Notes under the pieces: model-generated
Seen by the model: the letters and a program-made list of their open reading frames with translations, nothing else
The model's database searches: none
What the model was told of the DNA's origin: nothing
Part shown: positions 2,946 to 63,847 of the stretch, piece by piece
Numbering within the stretch: position 1 is the first letter of the stretch
How the letters are laid out: the number at the start of each line of letters is the position of its first letter
Origin: Acutalibacteraceae bacterium
GTDB lineage: Bacteria > Bacillota_I > Bacilli_A > RFN20 > CAG-449
Assembly: GCA_963610315.1 (NCBI GenBank)
Contig: CAVDMV010000003.1
Coordinates: 39,146 to 103,145, forward strand
Direction of reading: 5' to 3'
Length of the DNA stretch: 64,000 bases
Translations under genes and position numbers: made by a program

Positions 2946-3584
2946 TTAATCAAATTTTAAATCTAGTATTTCTTCAAAGCTATTAATTGGATAATCCGTT
3001 TTATAACATTTACTTGCATAACTTATTCCAATAGTTTTAAATTTTCCGTTAATTCCGGCATTAATTCCTGAAATGGCATCTTCAACAATCACACATTCAC
3101 TTGGTGATAAATGAAGATATTCCGCGGCAAGTAAAAATACTTCGGGGTCAGGTTTGGCACGCGTTATATTAGTTCCATCACTAACTGCATCAAAATATTT
3201 TCTTAAATCTGTTTTTTCTAAGATTAATTTAGTATTTTTACTTGAAGAACCTACCGCTAGTTTATAGCCTCGTTTTTTTAATTCTTCTAAAGTTGATCTT
3301 ACATTATTAGGAACTTTTTGAGGCGACATATTTTCTAGATAAGTTTTATATATATCATTTTTATATTCAGCCATTTGTTCTTTTTCTTCTTCACTATATT
3401 GCTTATTAGAATAAGATAAAATAGCGTTTAAACTATCCATTCTTGAAAGTCCTCTTAATTCATCACTTATATTTTTATTAAAAGGAATATTTAATTTATC
3501 AGCTAATGCTTTCCAAGCTAAATAATGATATTCATCAGTTGATAATAAAACGCCATCTAGATCAAAGATAATACCTTTTATCAT
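2946..3584 (-). CDS. pgmB: beta-phosphoglucomutase (HAD superfamily)
   Basis: N-terminal FDLDGVL motif; AEYHYLAWKALA closely matches the beta-PGM consensus; length 212 aa; last gene of the sugar ABC operon. Confidence 0.85.
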   Translation of the reverse strand: MIKGIIFDLDGVLLSTDEYHYLAWKALADKLNIPFNKNISDELRGLSRMDSLNAILSYSNKQYSEEEKEQMAEYKNDIYKTYLENMSPQKVPNNVRSTLEELKKRGYKLAVGSSSKNTKLILEKTDLRKYFDAVSDGTNITRAKPDPEVFLLAAEYLHLSPSECVIVEDAISGINAGINGKFKTIGISYASKCYKTDYPINSFEEILDLKFD

Positions 3585-3671: not shown

Positions 3672-5279
3672 TTATTCAATAGTTAAAGTACCTAAGCAAA
3701 GAAGTTCTTGTGATTCACGGTCAAATAACATGATATGATTACCTCTAAAACCTAATTTAATATCAGTTCCAATCATATAATCAACCGCGCCAAATTCATC
3801 ACCGGTCAGTAGATAGTTACCTACTTCTAAACGAATAGTTGTTTCTTTACCAGTAGGCATTGCGCTATAAACTTTTGCTTCAAGATTACCACCTTCATTA
3901 ATAGTGATATATTGTGATCTTACCCCAAGAACAAAGTCAAATTCATCGATAGTTGGATTATCTGGAACATCGATTGGTTGAGTAATTAATGGAATCTTAT
4001 AAGGGAATGGTCCATCTTTATTTGATTTATCTTCATTAACTGGACGAATATTCTTCTTAATTTCTTCACGACGTTTTTCTAAATCGAAATTTGGATCAGT
4101 TGGAGTAAAAATAGCCACTTTATCATCAAAGATTTTAAATTTAAAGGAATTACCTTCTTTTTTACCTCTTGCTTCAATTAAGTTAACTGCTGGGGTACCA
4201 ATAAAGTCCGCGACAAAGAGATTATTTGGATAATGATAAGTACGAATTGGAGGTTCATATTGTTGTAAAACACCATTATTCATTAAGCAAATTCTTGTTG
4301 CAAGAGTCATCGCTTCTAGTTGGTCGTGAGTAACATAAACGAAAGTCGCTCCTGTTTCCATATGGAGACGTTTTAATTCAGAACGCATTTCTAAACGTAG
4401 TTTTGCATCAAGGTTACTTAAAGGTTCATCCATAAATAAAACCTTAGGTCCAGGAGCTAAAGTACGCGCAATCGCGACACGTTGTTGTTGACCACCTGAT
4501 AATTCAGCAGGATAACGATCCATGAATTGAGTGATTTTTAATGTACGAGCTGAAGCACGTAATTTTAAATCGATTTCTTCAGGAGAAAGATGACGTACTT
4601 TTCTAATTGGATTACCATTTTCATCTAAATAACAATATTTATCATTTAGTTTGTCACCCTTCTTTTCGTGTTTGTCTAAGATCTTTTTAATTTCTTCATT
4701 TACTTTTTTTCTTTCTTCTTCTACTTTAGTTACTTCATAGCCTTTAGAAAGAAGTTTATAAGCTTTCTTTGCAGTAGGATAACTTACTTCAAAGAAATCA
4801 GTGATTTTAATAATCGCCGTTTCATCTTTAATTCTACCGTTTTTATCCGCGGCATCTTTAATTAAAGAAACAATCTTTTCTGGCTTATCTAAAACATTTA
4901 AATAATCATGTAAAGCGATTAAATCCCAATCATAGACATCCATTTCTTCATTGACATTCTTTAAACCAAAAGCAATGTTTTGATAAACTGTCATATTAGG
5001 CCATAAAGCATAGTTTTGGAATAAGAAACCAACATGACGTTTACTCGCAGAAACATTAATACCAAGTTCAGAATCAAAGACAACTTCATCACCGATAATA
5101 ATTCTTCCAGAAGTCGGAGTTTCAAGTCCTGCAATCATACGTAGCGTTGTAGTTTTACCACATCCAGATGGACCAAGTAATGTAACGAAACTATTATTAG
5201 GGATTTCTAAATTTAAATCATCAACGCCATAAAATTTACCCCATTTTTTATTGACGTGTTCTAATACAATTTTAGGCAT
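3672..5279 (-). CDS. sugar ABC transporter ATP-binding protein (MalK/MsmK-like) with a large inserted region
   Basis: Walker A GPSGCGKTT, Q-loop, LSGGQQQR signature, Walker B LFMDEPLSNLD; start taken at MPKIV (GGAGGAGG RBS), not the upstream in-frame Met; about 140 aa inserted between Q-loop and signature. Confidence 0.85.
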   Translation of the reverse strand: MPKIVLEHVNKKWGKFYGVDDLNLEIPNNSFVTLLGPSGCGKTTTLRMIAGLETPTSGRIIIGDEVVFDSELGINVSASKRHVGFLFQNYALWPNMTVYQNIAFGLKNVNEEMDVYDWDLIALHDYLNVLDKPEKIVSLIKDAADKNGRIKDETAIIKITDFFEVSYPTAKKAYKLLSKGYEVTKVEEERKKVNEEIKKILDKHEKKGDKLNDKYCYLDENGNPIRKVRHLSPEEIDLKLRASARTLKITQFMDRYPAELSGGQQQRVAIARTLAPGPKVLFMDEPLSNLDAKLRLEMRSELKRLHMETGATFVYVTHDQLEAMTLATRICLMNNGVLQQYEPPIRTYHYPNNLFVADFIGTPAVNLIEARGKKEGNSFKFKIFDDKVAIFTPTDPNFDLEKRREEIKKNIRPVNEDKSNKDGPFPYKIPLITQPIDVPDNPTIDEFDFVLGVRSQYITINEGGNLEAKVYSAMPTGKETTIRLEVGNYLLTGDEFGAVDYMIGTDIKLGFRGNHIMLFDRESQELLCLGTLTIE

Positions 5280-7161
5280 GTTTATTTTTACCTCCTCCGA
5301 TACCTGAGTCAATTGAAGCACCGGTTAATTTATTTACACCAAAGTTTGCGATTAAGACAAAGATAATAATTAATAAGTTAATCGCACTTGAGAAGGCTGA
5401 TAAGCCCATTTCATCATAATAAGATAATGATGTAGTCGCGATTTGATCGTTGTTTGTTACTAAGAACATGAATAAATTTAATTCACGCATACCAGTAATA
5501 AATGGTAATAAGTAACCTGAGATAATCGCGGATTTTTGAATAGGTATAACAATATGTGTCATACGTTTCCACCAAGGAGCCCCTTGAATAACGGCAGCTT
5601 CTTCAATTTCTGAAGATAATTGCATCATCGCGCTTAATGAAGAACGAGAAGCAAATGGAATATATTTAACAGATCCGCAGAGAATCATTAGGAACATTGC
5701 TCCTGCTGCTCCGGATATACCGGCATTTAATCCAAAGGCATGATATGCTGCTGAGAAAGCAACGGCTGGAATTAAATAAGGAAGGAACGAAATACCATTT
5801 ACATAACCTGCAAATTTATTCTTTCTCTTCTTTGATACACAATATCCAACTAAGAAGCCAAGAGTACCAGCAATAAGCGCACAGCTAACTGCAACTAAAG
5901 CTTGATTTCCAAATGATTTCCAAATATTTGTGTTATAGAAAATACCATAGTTACCATACATTCCAGCTTCACCATTTTCGTGATATGTCCACCATTTAGT
6001 TGTCCAAGATGAATAGTCTCCTGGGTTAGATAAGAACGTTTCAACACCGAAAGAAATAACAGGTAAGATAGAAGTAAAGGCAGTTAAGATAATTAAGATA
6101 ACTGCAATAACCCATTTACCAACTTTATTTAATTGAATCTTTGTTGCTTGAGCTGATTTACCAGAAACTGTAACGAATTGTTTTCTTGAAGTTAAAGAAG
6201 CTTGGTTAATAATTAAGATAATAAAACCGATAAGAAGCATTACAATACCGATAATAGAAGCAAATCCTTCACCAGTAATCGCTCTTAAATCAATGTAAGA
6301 AGTCGCAAGTACTTGGAAGTCTTTTCCGCCGACATAGTGAACGACTGGATAAGAACCAACTGCACTTGAGAAAACAAGTAAGATAGTTGAAAGTATCGCT
6401 GGAATAATCATTGGAATTGTAATTCTAAAGATGATTTTCCATTTTGGTGTATTTAAGATTGTCGCCGCTTCTTCAAGTGAAGCATCCATATTCTTAAAAA
6501 TACCACCGATTAAAATATAAGCAAATGCTGCATAGTGAATACCTAATACTAATGCTGAAGGGAATAAGCCTTGACACCACCATAAAGGGAAACGCCACGA
6601 AATTCCCATCTTAGAGAACATATAAGCAAAGAATCCATTAGAACCACCTGTTACATCCGCTGACCAGAATAAGTTTTTCCAAACAACTGCCAACGTCCAT
6701 TGAGGCATGATGTAAGGGAAAATGAAGATTGATGAAATCCACTTCTTACAAGGCAAGTTAGTTCTAGTAACTAAGAATGCCGCAATACCACCAAAAACTA
6801 AAGCAAACAAGCAACTTAACGTTCCTAGAAGTAACGAATTACCTAATGGAACCCAAAGATATTTATTCGCATAAGCGCCGCCGAAAAGATTAGCCCAGTT
6901 AGAAACTGAAAGTCCAACGGTATTATATCCATAGGCTTTTGCAAATTGCATTTCTTTACCAGCATGGACGGTAAATGAATTTTGAATAATAGACCAAAGA
7001 GGATAAAGAACTGCGAAAGATAACACTACACCCAATATTAGTAAAATTAAATTTTCAGGTCGAGAAATCCACGTGCCAACATGTGACATTACTTTATCCA
7101 TTGTTCCAGGAGTCTTTATATTACTAGAAGAATCTGAATATTCTTTTTTGTTTTTAAACAT
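5272..7161 (-). CDS. sugar ABC transporter permease (long, multi-span)
   Basis: Many predicted TM helices; start at MFKNKK with AAAGGAGA RBS; overlaps the ATPase start by 8 nt. Confidence 0.75.
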   Translation of the reverse strand: MFKNKKEYSDSSSNIKTPGTMDKVMSHVGTWISRPENLILLILGVVLSFAVLYPLWSIIQNSFTVHAGKEMQFAKAYGYNTVGLSVSNWANLFGGAYANKYLWVPLGNSLLLGTLSCLFALVFGGIAAFLVTRTNLPCKKWISSIFIFPYIMPQWTLAVVWKNLFWSADVTGGSNGFFAYMFSKMGISWRFPLWWCQGLFPSALVLGIHYAAFAYILIGGIFKNMDASLEEAATILNTPKWKIIFRITIPMIIPAILSTILLVFSSAVGSYPVVHYVGGKDFQVLATSYIDLRAITGEGFASIIGIVMLLIGFIILIINQASLTSRKQFVTVSGKSAQATKIQLNKVGKWVIAVILIILTAFTSILPVISFGVETFLSNPGDYSSWTTKWWTYHENGEAGMYGNYGIFYNTNIWKSFGNQALVAVSCALIAGTLGFLVGYCVSKKRKNKFAGYVNGISFLPYLIPAVAFSAAYHAFGLNAGISGAAGAMFLMILCGSVKYIPFASRSSLSAMMQLSSEIEEAAVIQGAPWWKRMTHIVIPIQKSAIISGYLLPFITGMRELNLFMFLVTNNDQIATTSLSYYDEMGLSAFSSAINLLIIIFVLIANFGVNKLTGASIDSGIGGGKNKHA

Positions 7162-8665: not shown

Positions 8666-8694
8666 AAGATAGAATGTAAGCGTTTACAAGTCAA
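8666..8694 (-). promoter_or_regulatory. putative sigma-A promoter (-35 TTGACT, -10 TATCTT) with a cre site (TGTAAACGCTTACA, plus coords 8675..8688) in the spacer
   Basis: cre matches the TGWAANCGNTNWCA consensus at all constrained positions; 17-nt spacing between hexamers. Confidence 0.5.
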
Positions 8695-57332: not shown

Positions 57333-57482
57333 AACTTTCCTCCATTTCTCAAATATTATAAGAAGAAGTCGGTTAAAAAACAATAAATAAAAAATACTCT
57401 CTTATTATTTTAAAAAAATAATATATTTCATTTTATTTCTTAATATTATATAATTAGTTTGTATTTCCAAGGAGGATTAACT

Positions 57483-58541
57483 ATGGGATTATTTAACAAA
57501 AAACAATTATTAAAAGTTATTGAATTTGAAGACGAATCAAAAGACGTTTTAGTTAACAAATATCAACTTAAAGATCGTGATGAGATTATGAACTCTTCTA
57601 CATTAGTAGTTAGACCATCTCAAATAGCATTATTTGTTCATAAAGGTCAAGTTTGTGATGTCTTTGCACCAGGTACATATAAATTAGCAACTGAAAACAT
57701 TCCTTTCTTAACTAAATTATTAAGTTTACCTACAGGTTTTGATTCACCTATTAAAGCAGAAGTATATTTCATTAATACAAAACAAATCACTGGTTTAAAA
57801 TGGGGAACTCAAAATCCAATCATGATGAGAGATAACGACTTCGGTAACGTTAGATTAAGAGCGTTCGGTGTCTACTCTTTCAAAGTTAAAAACGCAAAAG
57901 TCTTTATGGAAGAAATGTTTGGTACAAATTCTATCTATAAAGCAAGTGATGTAGCAGAACAAATGAAACCAGTCATCGTTCAAGGTTTCTCTGATGCAAT
58001 CGCTGAAAGTAAAATTTCTGCTCTCGATTTAGCAGCAAATTACAAAGAATTCTCAACAACAATTTTAGCGAAGAACCAAGAAGAATTTGAAAAATTCGGT
58101 CTTGAATTATGCACATTAGTCATTGAAAATATTTCTCTTCCAGAAGAAGTTGAAAAAGCTCTCGACGAAAGAACAAAACTTGGTGTTCTTGAAGATAAGA
58201 TGGGTACTTACGCTCAATACAAAGCTGCAAATGCAATGGAAGAAGCAGCAAAGAATCCTAATGGAAACAATATGGCTGGCTTAGGTGTTGGTATCGGCGC
58301 AGGAGCAAATATCGGAGCAATGTTTGGTTCAGCTTTATCAAGCGCACAAAATAAACCAAAAGAAGCACCAACTTCAACTGCAACTAAGAAATGTCCACAA
58401 TGTGGTGCAGATGTTCCTTCAACAAGTAAATTCTGCCCAGAATGTGGTGAAAAAATGCCAGTAGCTAAATTCTGTTCTAACTGCGGAGCTAAATTACAAG
58501 AAGGCGCAAAATTCTGTCCTGAATGTGGAGAAAAACAATAA
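57483..58541 (+). CDS. SPFH/Band-7 domain protein with four C-terminal zinc-ribbon CxxC motifs
   Basis: AAGGAGG RBS; SPFH-like N-terminal domain; C-terminal CPQCG...CPECG...CSNCG...CPECG. Confidence 0.75.
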   Translation: MGLFNKKQLLKVIEFEDESKDVLVNKYQLKDRDEIMNSSTLVVRPSQIALFVHKGQVCDVFAPGTYKLATENIPFLTKLLSLPTGFDSPIKAEVYFINTKQITGLKWGTQNPIMMRDNDFGNVRLRAFGVYSFKVKNAKVFMEEMFGTNSIYKASDVAEQMKPVIVQGFSDAIAESKISALDLAANYKEFSTTILAKNQEEFEKFGLELCTLVIENISLPEEVEKALDERTKLGVLEDKMGTYAQYKAANAMEEAAKNPNGNNMAGLGVGIGAGANIGAMFGSALSSAQNKPKEAPTSTATKKCPQCGADVPSTSKFCPECGEKMPVAKFCSNCGAKLQEGAKFCPECGEKQ

Positions 58542-59611
58542 TGGAAAATGAAGAAGTAGTAACAAAAGAACTTGCTTCTAGTGATAAAAAATGTCCTACT
58601 TGTGCTTCGGAATTAAGTTTTGATCCTAAAACAAAAAAATTAAAATGTTGTTCATGTGGTAACACTTATGAATTTGATCAAGTTTTAAACAATGATAAAC
58701 ATGATTTAAATTTAGAAGAACAAAGTATCTCTACTAAAGAATGGGCTAATGAATCTAAGTTAGTAAAATGTTCTTCATGTGGGGCTAATATCATGATTAA
58801 TGGTTTAGCTATCACACAAGAATGTCCTTACTGCGGTTCTAAATATATCGTTGAAACTGATGAAGTTCCAGGTTTAAAACCTGACTGCGTCGTTCCATTT
58901 GCTTTTGATCAAGAAGATGCAAAAATCAAATTTAAATCAAAGATTAAAGGTAAGTTCTTTGTCCCTCATAAATTAAAAAAAGAATTCAAAGATGCTGATA
59001 TTAAAGGCATCTATATTCCTGCTTTCTCATTTGATGGAGAAACTAGATCTACTTATCACGGTACTGTTCAAGTATCTAAACAAGTCAAAACTAAAGATGG
59101 TTATAAAACAGTTTATGAAACTAGACCAATCTCTGGAACTTATGATTATGATTATTGTAACTTATTAGTTGAATCATCAACACAAATTAATAACGAACAA
59201 TTATCATCGATTACTCCATATAATCTTCATGAATCATATGCTTATAACAATGATTTCTTAAGAGGATATTATGTAGAACAATACGTTGATACTATTAAAG
59301 ATTGTCATTCTGTCGCAGAAAGTAGAGTTGGAAGTGATATTAAATCAGGTATTTCAAGTAAATATTCTGGTACCGTCACTTCATTATTTGTTGATACACA
59401 TTATTCAAACGAAAAATATAATTATCAATTATTACCTCTTTATTATGTTTCATTCTTATATAAAGAAAAAAGATATACAGCTTTAATGAATGGTCAAACT
59501 GGTAAAGTTGGTAAAGGATTACCTATTTCTAAATTAAAAGTCGCTCTTGTTGTATTTGTTGTATTAGTACTCATTGCACTTGTTGTATTCTTCATTATGA
59601 AATCAGAATAG
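58541..59611 (+). CDS. double zinc-ribbon protein with C-terminal transmembrane anchor
   Basis: TAATG stop/start overlap with the SPFH gene; CPTC...CCSCG and CSSCG...CPYCG ribbons; C-terminal hydrophobic helix. Confidence 0.6.
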   Translation: MENEEVVTKELASSDKKCPTCASELSFDPKTKKLKCCSCGNTYEFDQVLNNDKHDLNLEEQSISTKEWANESKLVKCSSCGANIMINGLAITQECPYCGSKYIVETDEVPGLKPDCVVPFAFDQEDAKIKFKSKIKGKFFVPHKLKKEFKDADIKGIYIPAFSFDGETRSTYHGTVQVSKQVKTKDGYKTVYETRPISGTYDYDYCNLLVESSTQINNEQLSSITPYNLHESYAYNNDFLRGYYVEQYVDTIKDCHSVAESRVGSDIKSGISSKYSGTVTSLFVDTHYSNEKYNYQLLPLYYVSFLYKEKRYTALMNGQTGKVGKGLPISKLKVALVVFVVLVLIALVVFFIMKSE

Positions 59612-59625
59612 AAAGGGGATTTAAA

Positions 59626-60003
59626 ATGAATAAAGTAAAAAGAAATAAAAAAATATACGCTATTATTGCCGCGGTAATTCTTGTTCTTGGTATTGGTTCA
59701 CTAGTCGGATCAGTATTTACATTAATTGCAGGAATTAGTAAATTCGGTCAAGAAAATCAATTAGTTTCCGCGATTATCGTTACCGTTGTTGGAGTATTAT
59801 TAGTTTTACTTGGAGGATTCTTAGTCGTCCTAGGTATTTATCATTTATGGATTGCTTCTGCATTAAAAGCAACAGATGGTAATATCGCTGAAGGAAATGA
59901 TCTTGCGAATAAAACAATCAACGCGAAAAAATGTCCTAAATGCGGCTGCACAAATACTCCTGGAGTAGATGTTTGCCAAAGTTGTGGTACAAAATTAGAT
60001 TAA
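59626..60003 (+). CDS. small two-TM membrane protein with C-terminal zinc ribbon
   Basis: GGGG RBS; two hydrophobic helices; CPKCGC...CQSCG. Confidence 0.6.
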   Translation: MNKVKRNKKIYAIIAAVILVLGIGSLVGSVFTLIAGISKFGQENQLVSAIIVTVVGVLLVLLGGFLVVLGIYHLWIASALKATDGNIAEGNDLANKTINAKKCPKCGCTNTPGVDVCQSCGTKLD

Positions 60004-60511: not shown

Positions 60512-62038
60512 CTATTCAAATTCAATTGTCGCAGGTGGTTTACTAGTTACATCATAAAGTACACGGTTAACATTATGTACTTCATTAACAATTCGTCTAG
60601 AAACGACATCTAAGACATCATAAGGAATTTTTGCCCAGTCAGCCGTCATTCCATCAATAGAAGTTACGGCACGAATCGCGACTGAATAAGAATATGATCT
60701 TTGATCGCCCATAACCCCAACTGATTTATTATCAAGTAAAACAGTAAAATATTGCCATACTGATTTATCTAATCCAGCTTTCTTAAATTCTTCTCTTAAG
60801 ATTGCGTCACTATCTCTAACAATTTCAAGTTTATCTTCAGTGATATCACCAATAATTCTAATTGCTAAACCAGGTCCTGGAAAAGGTTGTCTATTGACGA
60901 GTTCATCATCAATTCCTAATGCTTTACCAAGTCTTCTAACTTCATCCTTAAATAATTTATTTAATGGTTCGAGAAGTTGGAATTTCATATCTTTAGGAAG
61001 ACCACCGACATTGTGATGTGATTTAATTGTTTGAGCCGTTTTTGTTCCTGATTCAATGACATCAGTATATAAAGTTCCTTGCGCTAAGAAAGAATAATCA
61101 CCGATTTTTGCTGATTCTTCATCGAATACTTTAACGAATGTATTACCAATGATTTTTCTCTTCTTTTCAGGTTCTCTAACATCTTTTAATAAGCCTAAGA
61201 ATAATTCACTCGCATCGATTTTTACTACATCAATGCCGAATTTCTTAAATCTTTCCATGACAATTTTAGCTTCGTCTTTTCTAAGTAGGCCATGGTCAAT
61301 AAACATACATTTTAATTGTGAACCGATCGCTTTTGAAATAAGTACTGCCGCGACAGTTGAATCTACTCCGCCGGAAATACCAAGTAGTACGTTCTTATCT
61401 TGAACTTTTTCTTTAATCGCTTTAATTTGTTCTTGAATATATGTATCCATATTCCAAGTACATGCACATTTACAAACTTTAACAACAAAGTTCTTTAAAA
61501 TTTGGAATCCACATTCTGAGTTATTAACTTCAGGATGGAATTGAACTGCATAAATATTTCTTGTTGTATCTTGAATACTAGCGATTGGACAATCAGTAGT
61601 TTTTGCAAGTACTTCAAAGCCTTTAGGTGCTTCAAAAACTCCATCTCCATGACTCATCCAAACGATTTGAGATTGTTTAGTTTCAGAAAAGATTATTGAA
61701 TCCTTAATAACGTTTAATTCTTTTCCCCCGTATTCTTTATTAACACAAGGTTTAACGCTTCCGCCGAAATGATGTGAAATATATTGCATACCATAGCAAA
61801 TGCCAAGAACTGGTACACCTAAAGAAAAGATTTCATCGTTACATCTAAATGATTTTGGATCATAAACTGAATTAGGTCCGCCGGAAAGGATAATTCCTTT
61901 GACGTTCTTACTTTTAATTTCTTCAATCGTAATATCGTAACTAACTAGTTCTGAAAATACTCCCATATCACGTATTCTACGTGCGATTAGTTGGTTGTAT
62001 TGACTACCAAAATCAATTACTAAGATTTCTTCTTCCAT
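60512..62038 (-). CDS. guaA: GMP synthase (glutamine-hydrolysing)
   Basis: Class I GATase N-domain plus ATP pyrophosphatase (SGGVDS) and dimerisation domain; ATG start (MEEEIL) with GGGAGG RBS, downstream of the TTG used by the ORF track. Confidence 0.93.
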
Positions 62039-62055
62039 AAAGCCTCCCAAAGAAC

Positions 62056-62078
62056 ATAAAAAAGGGCTATGTGCCCTT
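62056..62078 (-). terminator. intrinsic terminator/attenuator about 20 nt upstream of the guaA RBS
   Basis: AAGGGCacataGCCCTT followed by TTTTTT on the minus strand. Confidence 0.55.
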
Positions 62079-62130
62079 ATTTTATAAATAATATAGATTT
62101 GTTACACAAAAAGAATTAATAGAGATATTA

Positions 62131-62232
62131 TTAGTTTTCATTCTTAATTCTTTTTCCATACATCTCCATGCCCAAGTATAGATCGATAAATAAGATTTCC
62201 CCCGATAGTCGAAGTCCACCTACCATAATCAT
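62131..62232 (-). CDS. putative 33-aa leader ORF (MIMVGGLRLSGEILFIDLYLGMEMYGKRIKNEN) between riboswitch aptamer and terminator
   Basis: Strong GGGGGAGG RBS 5 nt upstream of the ATG; no homolog recognised. Confidence 0.25.
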   Translation of the reverse strand: MIMVGGLRLSGEILFIDLYLGMEMYGKRIKNEN

Positions 62233-62256
62233 TAATCCTCCCCCATAGAGATATTA

Positions 62257-62327
62257 ATATCGTAGTCTCGCTATTTACGGCAGCGAGGTAGAGACTTTCG
62301 AACCAATCATCGAATTTATACGACCAA
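62257..62327 (-). ncRNA. purine riboswitch aptamer, guanine-type (C at the specificity position)
   Basis: Minus strand UCGUAUAA-AUUCGAUGAUUGGUUCGAA-AGUCUCUACC-UCGCUGCCGUAAAUAGCGAG-ACUACGA aligns block by block with the xpt aptamer (UAUAA, UCUACC, CCGUAAAU, GACUACG). Confidence 0.7.
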
Positions 62328-62410
62328 TTACATATTTAGTTTACTTGGTAAGATTGTTTATGTCTATATCAATTTTTTGAAAGCGATTTCATGAGCTTTC
62401 AACTATTCAA

Positions 62411-63847
62411 TTATTCTTCCTCTTTTGTTTCTTCTCCTGCTGGAGCAGTAACAACATCTTTAGGATCTCTTAAAGCTAAGTTAACCGCGATACCAAGTAA
62501 CATACTTACTGCAGTTGAAGTAATTGTAATTGCTGGATCATAAGCATCACCAAATTTTAATGATAGACCGCCGATACCTGAAACTAAGATAACACTTGCG
62601 ATAAAGATATTTTTAGATACATTGAAATCAACTTTTTCTTGAATGAGCATTTTAACACCGCTTGAAGCGATAAATCCATAAAGAATTAATGATACACCAC
62701 CAGTAACACAACCTGGAATTGTTTCAAGTAATGCTGTAAATGGAGTGAAGAAACCAACGACAATTGACATTAATGCTGCAAGGAAAACTACTTTAACTGA
62801 TGCAATACCTGTTGTACCAATAACCGCGACGTTTTCGCCATATGTAGTATTTGCCGCACCACATAAAGCACCTGATAATGCAGTTGCGATACCATCACCT
62901 GTTAATGTTCTCTTTAAGCCTGGTTCACCATTTAATAAATCTCTACCAATGATATTACCTAAGTTTTCATGATCACCGATATGTTCACAAACTGTAACTA
63001 ATGAAACTGGAACGAATAATAAGATAACTTCGCCAATTGTTGCCCAATCAAAGTTCTTAATTGATTCAAATCTTAAGAACATAAATGATTCTGGATCATC
63101 TGGAACAAACATCTTGTAATTAAAGATTGATGAGAAATCAAATTCAGTAAAGATTTTTGTTAATGGAGTGAAATTAACAATATTGAAATATTCATTACCA
63201 CATGCAGTATATCCAATTAAAGTAACAACTACCGCGAAGATATATCCGCTGCCCATACCAATAACGAATGGGATTAAGCTTGCCATCTTACCTTTACCAT
63301 AGTGAGATGCTAAAGCTGTTGCAAATAAAGCGACTAATCCACAAAGAATGGCCATTAAATTATATGATGAATTAGAAGTAGTTAAATTACTAACTGCTGA
63401 ACTAGATAAGCCTAAACCGATGACCATGATGACTGGACCAACAATGACTGGAGGTAAAACTTTATCTAACCAAGAAGTACCAACAAATTTAACAAGTAAA
63501 GCAATAACACAATAAACTAAGCCTACTAGAGCCATACCAATGATTAACGCTAAGTAGTTTCTTCCACCAGCATTATTAATTAAGCCGACTGCTAACGCAC
63601 TTGCCATTGGTGAAATGTAAGCAAAGCTTGAGCTTAAGAAGACTGGTGATTTCATCTTTGTAATTAATAAATAACAAATTGTACCTAGACCTGCTGATAC
63701 TAATGTCGCTGCAATTGGTAAACCTGTAAGAATAGGTACTGTAATACAAGCAACGAGCATTGCAAGAATGTGTTGAATCGCAAAGATAATCCAGTGCGAA
63801 ACTTTTTTAGGTGTTTCTTCAACATCTAGAACTAAGTTCTTTTCCAT
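62411..63847 (-). CDS. nucleobase:cation symporter (NCS2 family; xanthine/uracil permease)
   Basis: About 478 aa, 12-14 TM helices, NCS2 conserved segments; start at MEKNLV after GGGGGAGG RBS. Confidence 0.85.

Follow-up and report, generated by a model that had tools for sequence, protein, structure and literature searches.

A guanine-class riboswitch ahead of guaA with an atypical expression platform and a putative leader reading frame running into a terminator

The guaA gene of an uncultured, AT-rich gut bacterium is preceded by a purine riboswitch of the guanine class whose aptamer, on the evidence of covariance-model matching and sequence conservation, is bona fide and strongly constrained. 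The aptamer as such adds nothing new, as guanine riboswitches on guaA are known and are even antibacterial targets; the interest lies in the expression platform, for which we propose an unproven variant marked by loss of the canonical terminator and by a long structured leader that carries a terminator at the Shine-Dalgarno (SD) sequence of guaA, with an open reading frame (ORF) running into it. Our preferred explanation, which is held tentatively and put at somewhat less than an even chance, is that a guanine OFF switch and a ribosome-dependent attenuator would act in two tiers on guaA within this leader, which extends over about 220 nt between the aptamer and the gene. The analysis started from a 64-kb stretch of DNA, here called the window, which has a G + C content of 30%; the taxonomic labels of its nearest relatives, which are uncultured gut MAGs, are inconsistent.

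Genomic context and comparison set

Homologous loci were gathered by GuaA searches of genome, metagenome and protein collections and by contig look-ups. The riboswitch-bearing guaA genes belong to four lineages with mutual GuaA identities of 74-80%, i.e., the window's own clade, L129-L132, L060 and L133/L134, the L060 and L133 lineages being represented by one or two sequences each, and the aptamer is absent from relatives at 66-75% GuaA identity. The window's clade comprises 28 leaders with 95-100% identical GuaA proteins, which reduce to eight unique variants, namely the window itself, L001, L002, L003, L143, L144, L145 and L147, the latter being the commonest with 20 contigs. The contigs derive from ENA/Logan samples such as ERZ156105xx.

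Read along the minus strand, on which all features of the locus lie, a gene for an NCS2 nucleobase permease stands first (63895-62411; Pfam Xan_ur_permease, 1e-70; closest NCBIfam models uracil permease and NCS2) and is followed by a cre match, a promoter-like site, the aptamer, the leader and finally guaA. The cre match is perfect with respect to the consensus (62391-62378) and is located between the permease gene and the sigma-70-like promoter-like site TAGACA-17-TAAACT (62366..62338), from which the consensus scan predicts a transcription start near 62331, a few nucleotides ahead of the aptamer helix P1. Promoter-like sites upstream of the aptamer are also present in L133 and L060, and the same scan found no such site in the interval from the aptamer to guaA. 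The guaA coding sequence (62038-60512) encodes a glutamine-hydrolysing GMP synthase (Pfam GATase, 1e-46; GMP_synt_C, 2e-44), its homologues likewise carry the name GMP synthase, and an SD sequence GGGAGG can be seen at 62048-62043.

The aptamer

An earlier note on this DNA had recognised a purine riboswitch with C at the specificity position at about 62259-62325 of the minus strand, and the covariance-model scan that it had called for bears this out. The Rfam model Purine (RF00167) matches over its full length (model positions 1-102 of 102; 62343..62243 including the flanks) with 75.3 bits, the gathering score being 37, and an E-value of 1.4e-11, or 9.5e-14 when the leader alone is scanned, and the core from P1 to P1 spans 62324..62259. 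RF00167 is the best Rfam match, ahead of the 2'-dG-II family, which belongs to the same clan. A permissive cmscan of positions 62000-62420 returned Purine alone, all other models having E>1 and scoring far under their gathering scores; a tandem riboswitch or a second known RNA element was rejected on this ground.

The three-way junction of P1, P2 and P3 is complete. P1 (GUCGUA/UACGAU) has 6 bp with two non-canonical outer positions, P2 and P3 are present, and the expected nucleotides are found in J1-2 (UAUAA), J2-3 (GUxUCUACC) and J3-1 (GACUA) as well as in the L3 loop (CCGUAAA); compared to the model there is one deletion in L2, and a C/U difference in J2-3 sits at a variable position. The specificity position in J3-1 is a C (GACUACGA) and is invariant in all eight clade variants as well as in L129, L060 and L133, and because of this C and the conserved junction nucleotides the aptamer is assigned to the guanine class. 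Only two columns of the aptamer vary across the eight clade variants, the homologous aptamers of the sister lineages score 72-79 bits, and both the aptamer and the terminator described below are clearly above chance. Both the family and its association with this gene are known, and the aptamer adds a new member.

Terminators and hairpins of the leader

The expression platform was described in the earlier note as atypical, and it is so in several respects: the place of the terminator next to the aptamer is taken by a hairpin without a U-tract, the leader is long, and a terminator stands at the SD sequence of guaA. In the compact leader of L129 the aptamer is followed by a hairpin, the terminator AGCGTTC...GAACGCT with its U-run, and then the SD sequence and guaA. 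This terminator is shared by L129, L060 and L133 (-11.6 to -17.3 kcal/mol, z -4.8 to -7.4), with -15.3 and -17.3 kcal/mol and z of about -7 for the post-aptamer copies of L060 and L133, respectively. By alignment to L060, its position corresponds in the window to the hairpin CUUCGA/UCGGGG without a U-tract, so that the canonical riboswitch terminator, as judged from this alignment, appears to have decayed in the window's clade.

In L060 and L133 the first terminator is followed, after about 100-130 nt, by a second hairpin with a U-run directly before the SD sequence of guaA, a strong structure in L133 (-13.6 kcal/mol, z -4.1) and a weak one in L060 (z -0.7); a simple consensus scan flags only the first terminator of L133 and leaves the second hairpins of both L133 and L060 unflagged. 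Including the window's clade, a terminator-like hairpin directly before the guaA SD sequence is found in three of the four riboswitch-bearing lineages, L129 being without it. One small clade has the same aptamer wired in three ways: in L129 a canonical terminator follows in a compact arrangement, in L060 and L133 the terminator is succeeded by an ORF and a further terminator, and in the window the leader bears a decayed canonical terminator. The three arrangements form a natural series showing riboswitch platforms being rebuilt.

The terminator before guaA in the window (62086..62055 including its A/U extension and U-run) was found by the consensus scan and has a folding energy of -12.1 kcal/mol (z -3.2). 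Its core AAGGGC/GCCCTT (62078..62062) encloses the loop ACATA and is followed by TTTTAT, with a run of six T. The earlier note had it just before the guaA ribosome-binding site, which holds, at a distance of about 20 nt, which does not: the gap to the SD sequence amounts to 8-14 nt. Hairpin and U-run are kept in all clade variants, with differing loops and an extra pair (z -4.0 in L144), and directly 5' of the terminator lies an invariant A/T-rich block (62112-62080) containing hexamers resembling TATAAA and TAAAAT.

Further upstream, an inverted repeat gives rise to a long AU-rich hairpin (62169..62093; -16.8 kcal/mol, z -2.56) with a core of 12 perfectly matched base pairs between AAAAAGAAUUAA (62155-62144) and UUAAUUCUUUUU (62119-62108) and a 24-nt loop; among the variants, one A-U pair of the stem is changed to G.U. 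As the core contains one G-C pair only and the loop is large, it is doubtful whether this hairpin could act as a terminator.

A transcription-terminating riboswitch would be expected to have an intrinsic terminator and an antiterminator, and of these the former is found in the window and the latter is not. In all lineages, the arms of the terminators have no upstream partner that is better than in shuffled controls, and the 3' strand of P1 has no downstream partner beating such controls, with the limit that AU-rich pairings may escape a test of this kind and are hard to tell from shuffles at 30% G + C. A classical antiterminator, which had been considered, could not be detected in any of the lineages, whichever terminator was examined. 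The two terminator-like hairpins form whether or not the aptamer is constrained in the fold.

Two reading frames in the leader

The earlier note had proposed that an SD sequence located 30 nt downstream of the aptamer serves a leader peptide of 33 codons (MIMVGGLRLSGEILFIDLYLGMEMYGKRIKNEN, 62232..62131). Both elements exist: the ORF is contained in the ORF listing, and the SD-like motif GGGGGAGG (62244-62237) is invariant among the clade variants and lies 4 nt before the ATG. It starts, however, 15 nt and not 30 nt past the 3' strand of P1, the ATG at 62232 following that strand by 27 nt, and the ORF is judged not to be a conserved coding feature. Although the ATG itself is kept in seven of the eight clade variants, the ORF is cut short, frameshifted or startless in seven of them, its 33 codons being unique to the window: a TGA stop at codon 18 leaves 17 codons in L147 (20 contigs) and L143, which together make up 21 of the 28 clade leaders, L003 has five codons, L002, L144 and L145 are frameshifted towards a different product of 29 amino acids, and L001 lacks the start codon by a change from ATG to AAG. 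No other part of the leader varies as much as the body of the ORF (about 62228-62172), in which about 20 of 65 columns differ and several indels occur. In the block comparison of the eight variants the blocks flanking this body are invariant, and about 30% of the columns vary in the region adjoining the aptamer, compared to two columns in the aptamer itself. The peptide has no match in Pfam or NCBIfam, and no counterpart of the ORF was found in L129, L060 or L133. Taken from these comparisons, a functional leader peptide of 33 codons is not supported.

A second ORF of 25 codons (62158..62082) has properties of a different kind. It is preceded at 4 nt by GGAG, which resides inside CAUGGAGAUGU and represents, with this spacer, a modest ribosome-binding site, and its stop codon TAA (62084-62082) is located 3 nt before the stem of the terminator. 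Analogous ORFs are present in L060 (1373-1471; 32 codons; GAGGA with a 9-nt spacer; stop in the 3' arm of the hairpin) and in L133 (1862-1969; 35 codons; GAGGA with a 7-nt spacer; stop in the loop); both the second hairpin and an ORF of this type are missing from L129. An ATG ORF of 24-35 codons led by an SD sequence is common to the three lineages with long leaders, and it ends between 12 nt before the hairpin and the 3' end of the latter. Compared to dinucleotide-shuffled spacers, this pattern has P = 0.005-0.011 in the window, 0.001 in L060 and 0.005 in L133, the criterion having been set after the pattern was seen.

Within the window's clade the second ORF is open in all eight variants, with its stop 2-11 nt before the stem sequence GGGC. 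In L144 and L145 the frame is shifted by a deletion of one nucleotide, but the TAA thereby brought into frame has become CAA through a T-to-C change, and the ORF continues to a TAG that overlaps the terminator stem; the deletion alone would have led to a stop about 40 nt earlier, and none of the 69-72 single-nucleotide deletions in the background of L002 or the window keeps an ORF ending at the terminator. As read off the alignment, six of seven substitutions within the clade are non-synonymous. The leader peptides and spacers of the three lineages could not be aligned with one another, and the peptides have neither homology to the products of neighbouring genes nor matches in Pfam or NCBIfam. 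If anything is selected here, it would be translation up to the point of the terminator and not the peptide. An SD-led ORF that is conserved in position and has its stop at the attenuator, which is what a leader-ORF attenuator would entail, is thus found for 62158-62082. The SD-like motifs GGAG and GAGGA also lie within predicted helices, and purine-rich helix arms could mimic SD sequences.

Other long guaA leaders were inspected for the order terminator, ORF, terminator, and the idea of a more widespread layout was abandoned: the Brevibacillus leader L010 has a terminator and a 125-nt spacer and no second terminator, L033 is compact, and the riboswitch-less relatives are without the module.

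Alternative pairings next to the aptamer

Folding predicts a hairpin abutting P1, AUUAAU-A-UCUCU / GGAGG-AUUAAU (62258..62231), which begins one nucleotide past P1, has GGAGG (62241-62237) opposite UCUCU (62251-62247), and can extend into the 3' strand of P1 (GAU/AUU, ACUA/UGGU). Its 3' arm is GGGGGAGG. The final U of the hairpin belongs to the ATG of the 33-codon ORF and forms the closing pair with the nucleotide after GAUA. This pair is A:U in the window, L143 and L147, G.U in L002, L003, L144 and L145, and U:A in L001, where the loss of the ATG can be regarded as compensatory for the hairpin because the same change gives the U:A pair. Since a change destroying the ATG compensates a hairpin whose 3' arm is GGAGG, the 'perfect SD' GGGGGAGG is best read as a structural arm of this hairpin. 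Hairpins abutting P1 and able to invade 3-4 nt of its 3' strand are also present in each of L129, L060 and L133.

With the aptamer enforced, a long hairpin (62254..62160) is predicted that is closed by an 11-bp helix between AUAUCUCUAUG (62254-62244) and CAUGGAGAUGU (62170-62160) and, as both structures make use of 62254-62247, excludes the hairpin abutting P1. The arms of the helix are invariant among the eight variants except for one pair that is either G:C or G:U, and its variable interior holds the G-rich hairpin CUUCGA/UCGGGG (62214-62200). Both alternative folds fit all eight variants, about 99% of cells being paired compared to 41-55% with the partners slid, at a low covariation power at which shuffles reach the observed value in 85/500 and 33/500 cases.

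In isolation, the 11-bp helix is about 5 kcal/mol more stable than the hairpin abutting P1 in both states of P1. In the window, the probability of GGAGAUGUAUG being unpaired falls from 0.51 to 0.26 once the aptamer is enforced and the helix forms, and in L001-L003 the prediction contains the helix irrespective of the aptamer (occupancy 0.79-0.98), the accessibility of the second ORF's SD sequence being unchanged. An access to this SD sequence that depends on the state of the aptamer is therefore confined to the window and absent from L001-L003; it was set aside as a finding and is kept as a weak inference. Also discarded was a pairing of CAUGGAGAUGU with a second copy of a 15-nt repeat (62133-62119), which is mutated in L001 and carries a deletion in L144 and L145, i.e., is not conserved.

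Mechanism and alternative explanations

Coupling of a leader peptide to termination, or a two-tier attenuator, had been suggested in the earlier note with regard to the 33-codon ORF, for which this idea fails; it finds moderate support when transferred to the second ORF. In the two-tier reading preferred here, RNA polymerase would reach guaA only if a ribosome on the ORF 62158-62082 arrives at the stop codon, where, 3 nt before the terminator, it would prevent the pre-guaA hairpin from forming; on initiation, moreover, the ribosome would sit over the AU-rich hairpin's 5' arm. That translation of the second ORF may block the pre-guaA terminator in this way is a claim of moderate strength, to which the position of the stop in three lineages and the compensated frameshift of L144 and L145 point. 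The tier nearer to the ligand is weaker and is suggested by fold predictions: a P1 stabilised by guanine would shorten the hairpin abutting it and favour the pairing of AUAUCUCUAUG with CAUGGAGAUGU, and as CAUGGAGAUGU holds the GGAG of the second ORF and abuts its AUG, the ORF would stay untranslated and transcription would stop before guaA. Any such switch in the window's clade would have to be kinetic, because the 11-bp helix forms in both states in L001-L003 and is about 5 kcal/mol more stable regardless of P1.

In its fullest version, this explanation would make the locus a composite attenuator, of a kind not known to have been reported for purine genes, in which the output of a guanine riboswitch is read through a translated ORF of 25-35 codons, unconstrained in sequence and ending at or in a second terminator, and in which, after loss of the canonical terminator in the window's clade, the aptamer controls the ribosome-binding site of the ORF by an exchange between anti-SD and decoy-SD (GGGGGAGG); so complete a scheme we consider possible but rather unlikely. 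If true, GMP synthesis would be gated by guanine and by ongoing translation, and even a functional leader ORF as such would provide a rare case of the Firmicute type in which a riboswitch and ribosome-mediated attenuation go together, tying the synthesis of a GTP precursor to translation status. It counts against the preferred explanation that Firmicutes, whose RNA polymerase often runs ahead of the ribosomes, seldom use ribosome-mediated attenuation.

The support for two tiers consists of computation, three lineages and post hoc statistics. Its main rival is a terminating riboswitch made of RNA only, in which guanine controls intrinsic termination at the pre-guaA terminator and/or the AU-rich hairpin, either kinetically or by an alternative pairing that escaped detection, the ORFs are incidental, and the second hairpin of the sister lineages is a leaky tandem terminator tightening repression. 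This reading, whose chance we put appreciably below even, is in line with the characterised guaA guanine riboswitches, all of which are OFF switches acting by termination, with the canonical terminators right behind the aptamer in the sister lineages, with the location of the SD-like motifs of the ORFs in predicted helices, and with the difficulty of separating AU-rich antiterminators from shuffles at 30% G + C. However, the terminator arms have no better-than-chance alternative partner in any lineage, the prediction of the two terminator-like hairpins does not depend on the aptamer, and this rival explains neither the rescue of a frameshift nor the SD-led ORFs, which stop at the second hairpin in three of three long-leader lineages. 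The model of the earlier note, in which the riboswitch controls translation of the 33-codon ORF from GGGGGAGG and this translation governs termination, could draw on the strong SD-like motif 4 nt before an ATG kept in seven of eight variants and on its being paired in one of the two predicted folds and free in the other; yet with an ORF of 0, 5, 17, 29 or 33 codons and frameshifts in near-identical strains, an ATG loss in L001 that is compensatory for the hairpin, a body that is the most variable segment of the leader, and no counterpart in L129, L060 and L133, it is very unlikely.

Two further explanations were weighed. In a translational relay on guaA, CU-rich repeats (AUAUCUCUAU, 62254-62245; UCUAUA, 62097-62092) and AUGGA segments (62169-62165; guaA start, 62039-62034) would form a chain of alternative helices by which the ligand sequesters the guaA start, and indeed UCUAUA (62097-62092) pairs with UAUGGA (62039-62034) when the aptamer is enforced, and UCUAU with the AUGGA at 62169-62165 in the unconstrained fold. 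As these helices are long-range and have 5-6 bp only, as the first step is not state-dependent in L001-L003, and as the pairing of the aptamer's J2-3 with the guaA SD sequence in the window fold is, judged by eye, impossible in L003, such a relay is quite improbable. Alternatively, the pre-guaA terminator might insulate an internal guaA promoter from transcription coming from upstream, with the riboswitch transcript as a separate non-coding RNA. The invariant A/T-rich block (62112-62080) with its TATAAA/TAAAAT-like hexamers just 5' of the terminator would suit an internal promoter, but no site between aptamer and guaA passes the scan, the candidate -35 hexamers match at 3/6 positions only, and the strong constraint on an aptamer that regulates nothing would be left without explanation, which makes this the least probable of all the readings and hardly to be expected.

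Some other interpretations of the leader were tried and dropped. The pairing between J2-3 and the guaA SD sequence in the minimum-free-energy fold of the window, incompatible by eye with L003, is viewed as a side effect of the CU-rich junction encountering sites rich in purines. Direct repeats and the resemblance of 'GEILFID' to 'EEILVID' had suggested that the leader arose by duplication of the 5' end of guaA and then decayed; this was rejected since, in local alignments of each leader with the start of its own guaA gene, 11-186 of 300 shuffles score as well. A mobile or MITE-like repeat was rejected too, no further copy of the segment being present in the 64-kb window or among the roughly 140 collected loci.

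Relation to known leaders

The prototype guanine riboswitch, that of Bacillus subtilis xpt-pbuX, resembles the one described here in its three-way-junction aptamer and in a P1 3' strand that is common to an adjacent alternative hairpin. The xpt hairpin acts as an antiterminator and overlaps with the terminator's 5' arm, whereas in the window and its sister lineages the hairpin merely abuts the next element and no overlap is detectable.

For ribosome-mediated attenuation, leader ORFs running into an attenuator are known from pyrBI and pyrE/rph of E. coli and from bmrB-bmrCD of B. subtilis; they provide the working analogy for the ORF 62158-62082 with its terminator and, together with the mgtA and mgtCBR leaders, come nearest to the present platform in function. 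The leader of the window is similar to these in that a short SD-led ORF stops at or in an intrinsic terminator just upstream of the gene and in that the sequence of the peptide seems unimportant. It differs in that neither an NTP-sensitive pause tract nor regulatory codons were identified, in the combination with a riboswitch, and in the putative nature of ORF translation.

Guanine OFF riboswitches on guaA are established in Bacillus anthracis (PMC5393184) and Clostridioides difficile (PMC11477304), and the guaA guanine riboswitch is the target of PC1 in S. aureus and C. difficile (PMC2858708). The switch of the window has the aptamer class, the C at the specificity position and the regulated gene in common with those of B. 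anthracis and C. difficile, and the same OFF logic is expected, as salvage of guanine or hypoxanthine makes GMP synthase dispensable (PMC5393184, PMC11477304, PMC2858708). While the platform in B. anthracis and C. difficile is a single rho-independent terminator, the window has a G-rich hairpin without a U-tract by the aptamer, and the roughly 220 nt up to guaA hold two long hairpins as well as a terminator that ends 8-14 nt short of the SD sequence.

The Salmonella mgtA and mgtCBR leaders combine a Mg2+ riboswitch with short leader ORFs in tandem attenuators (PMC3641672). As in these, an RNA sensing a metabolite or ion and short ORFs, translated there and putative here, would influence downstream stem-loops and the passage of transcription into the coding sequence; the mgtA and mgtCBR leaders differ in being proteobacterial and Rho-dependent and in having ORFs that sense proline or other signals via specific codons. 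The window has no sequence relationship with the pyrBI, pyrE and bmrB or the mgtA and mgtCBR leaders, and no structural one with mgtA and mgtCBR. For annotation, the locus offers a note of caution in that a 'perfect' SD sequence with an ORF beside a riboswitch can be the arm of a hairpin.

Possible carbon control elements at guaA promoters

With respect to the region upstream of the riboswitch, the sequence TGAAATCGCTTTCA at 62378-62391 of the window is a perfect match to the consensus of the catabolite-responsive element (cre), TGWAANCGNTNWCA; about 53 nt separate it from the predicted start of the riboswitch transcript, which is located downstream. Within the window there are two sites matching this consensus (four strand-matches, versus 0.16 expected), the other being located at 8675-8688. 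Corresponding motifs are present upstream of the riboswitch promoter in two loci of the sister lineages, namely TGTAATCGCTTTCA at about 1133-1146 in L060 and TGTAATCGTTTTCA at about 1624-1637 in L133. These sites suggest the guaA promoter as a candidate for CcpA-type carbon control.

Four relatives that lack the riboswitch (L006, L008, L009 and L141) have in common a conserved motif, (A/T)AACCGCTTTCAATACAAAA..GCG....TGTGCACGATAAT, about 60-140 nt upstream of guaA. Its core, CGCTTTCA, is identical in these loci to the core of the cre-like site of the window, and the motif may represent a shared operator or promoter element of guaA in this group.

The taxonomic labels of the closest MAG relatives conflict with one another: L001, L002 and L003, near-identical loci with GuaA at 95-98% identity, derive from MAGs that bear the names 'Azospirillum sp. 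CAG:239', 'Lachnospiraceae bacterium' and 'bacterium', respectively, and the next relatives beyond them are called 'uncultured Bacilli'. A G + C content of 30%, the cre site and the purine riboswitch are compatible with a Bacilli-type organism.

Repeated and conserved segments of the leader

The leader of the window also contains a 15-nt direct repeat (62245-62259, TATTAATATCTCTAT, and 62119-62133, TAATAATATCTCTAT; spacing 126 nt), the first copy of which is the CU-rich segment adjoining P1, the closing helix of the aptamer, while the second lies within the loop of the AU-rich hairpin. Since in the window's clade this second copy has undergone mutation in L001 and a deletion in L144 and L145, a conserved role for the repeat is doubtful. 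The block TTTTTGTGTAACAAATCTATATTATTTATAAAA (62080-62112), which separates the AU-rich hairpin from the terminator, is nearly invariant across the clade, despite the fact that the peptide overlapping it is not conserved; the extended hairpin stem accounts for this near-invariance only in part.

Further purine-type aptamers and neighbouring genes

Downstream of guaA, the sister lineages have first a phosphoribosyltransferase gene and then another purine aptamer, which scores lower, at 48-56 bits (4115-4213 in L129, with equivalents in L130-L132; 4129-4225 in L133/L134; 3626-3715 in L060), after which a Bmp-family lipoprotein gene comes in L129-L134. No such arrangement is found downstream of guaA in the window. 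The Brevibacillus guaA locus (L010) is flanked on both sides by purine aptamers of about 76 bits each (3677-3779 and 5678-5779), the upstream one being followed by a terminator and then by a 125-nt spacer without a second terminator. One metagenomic relative (L071) has, downstream of its guaA gene, a match to the 2'-deoxyguanosine-II riboswitch at positions 3388-3457 (RF03165, 61.4 bits versus a gathering score of 60).

Elsewhere in the window, three consecutive ORFs of 360, 362 and 125 aa (57459-60003, plus strand) have ends in which zinc-ribbon-like motifs of the form CPxCG / CxxCG are repeated, as seen in the translations only.
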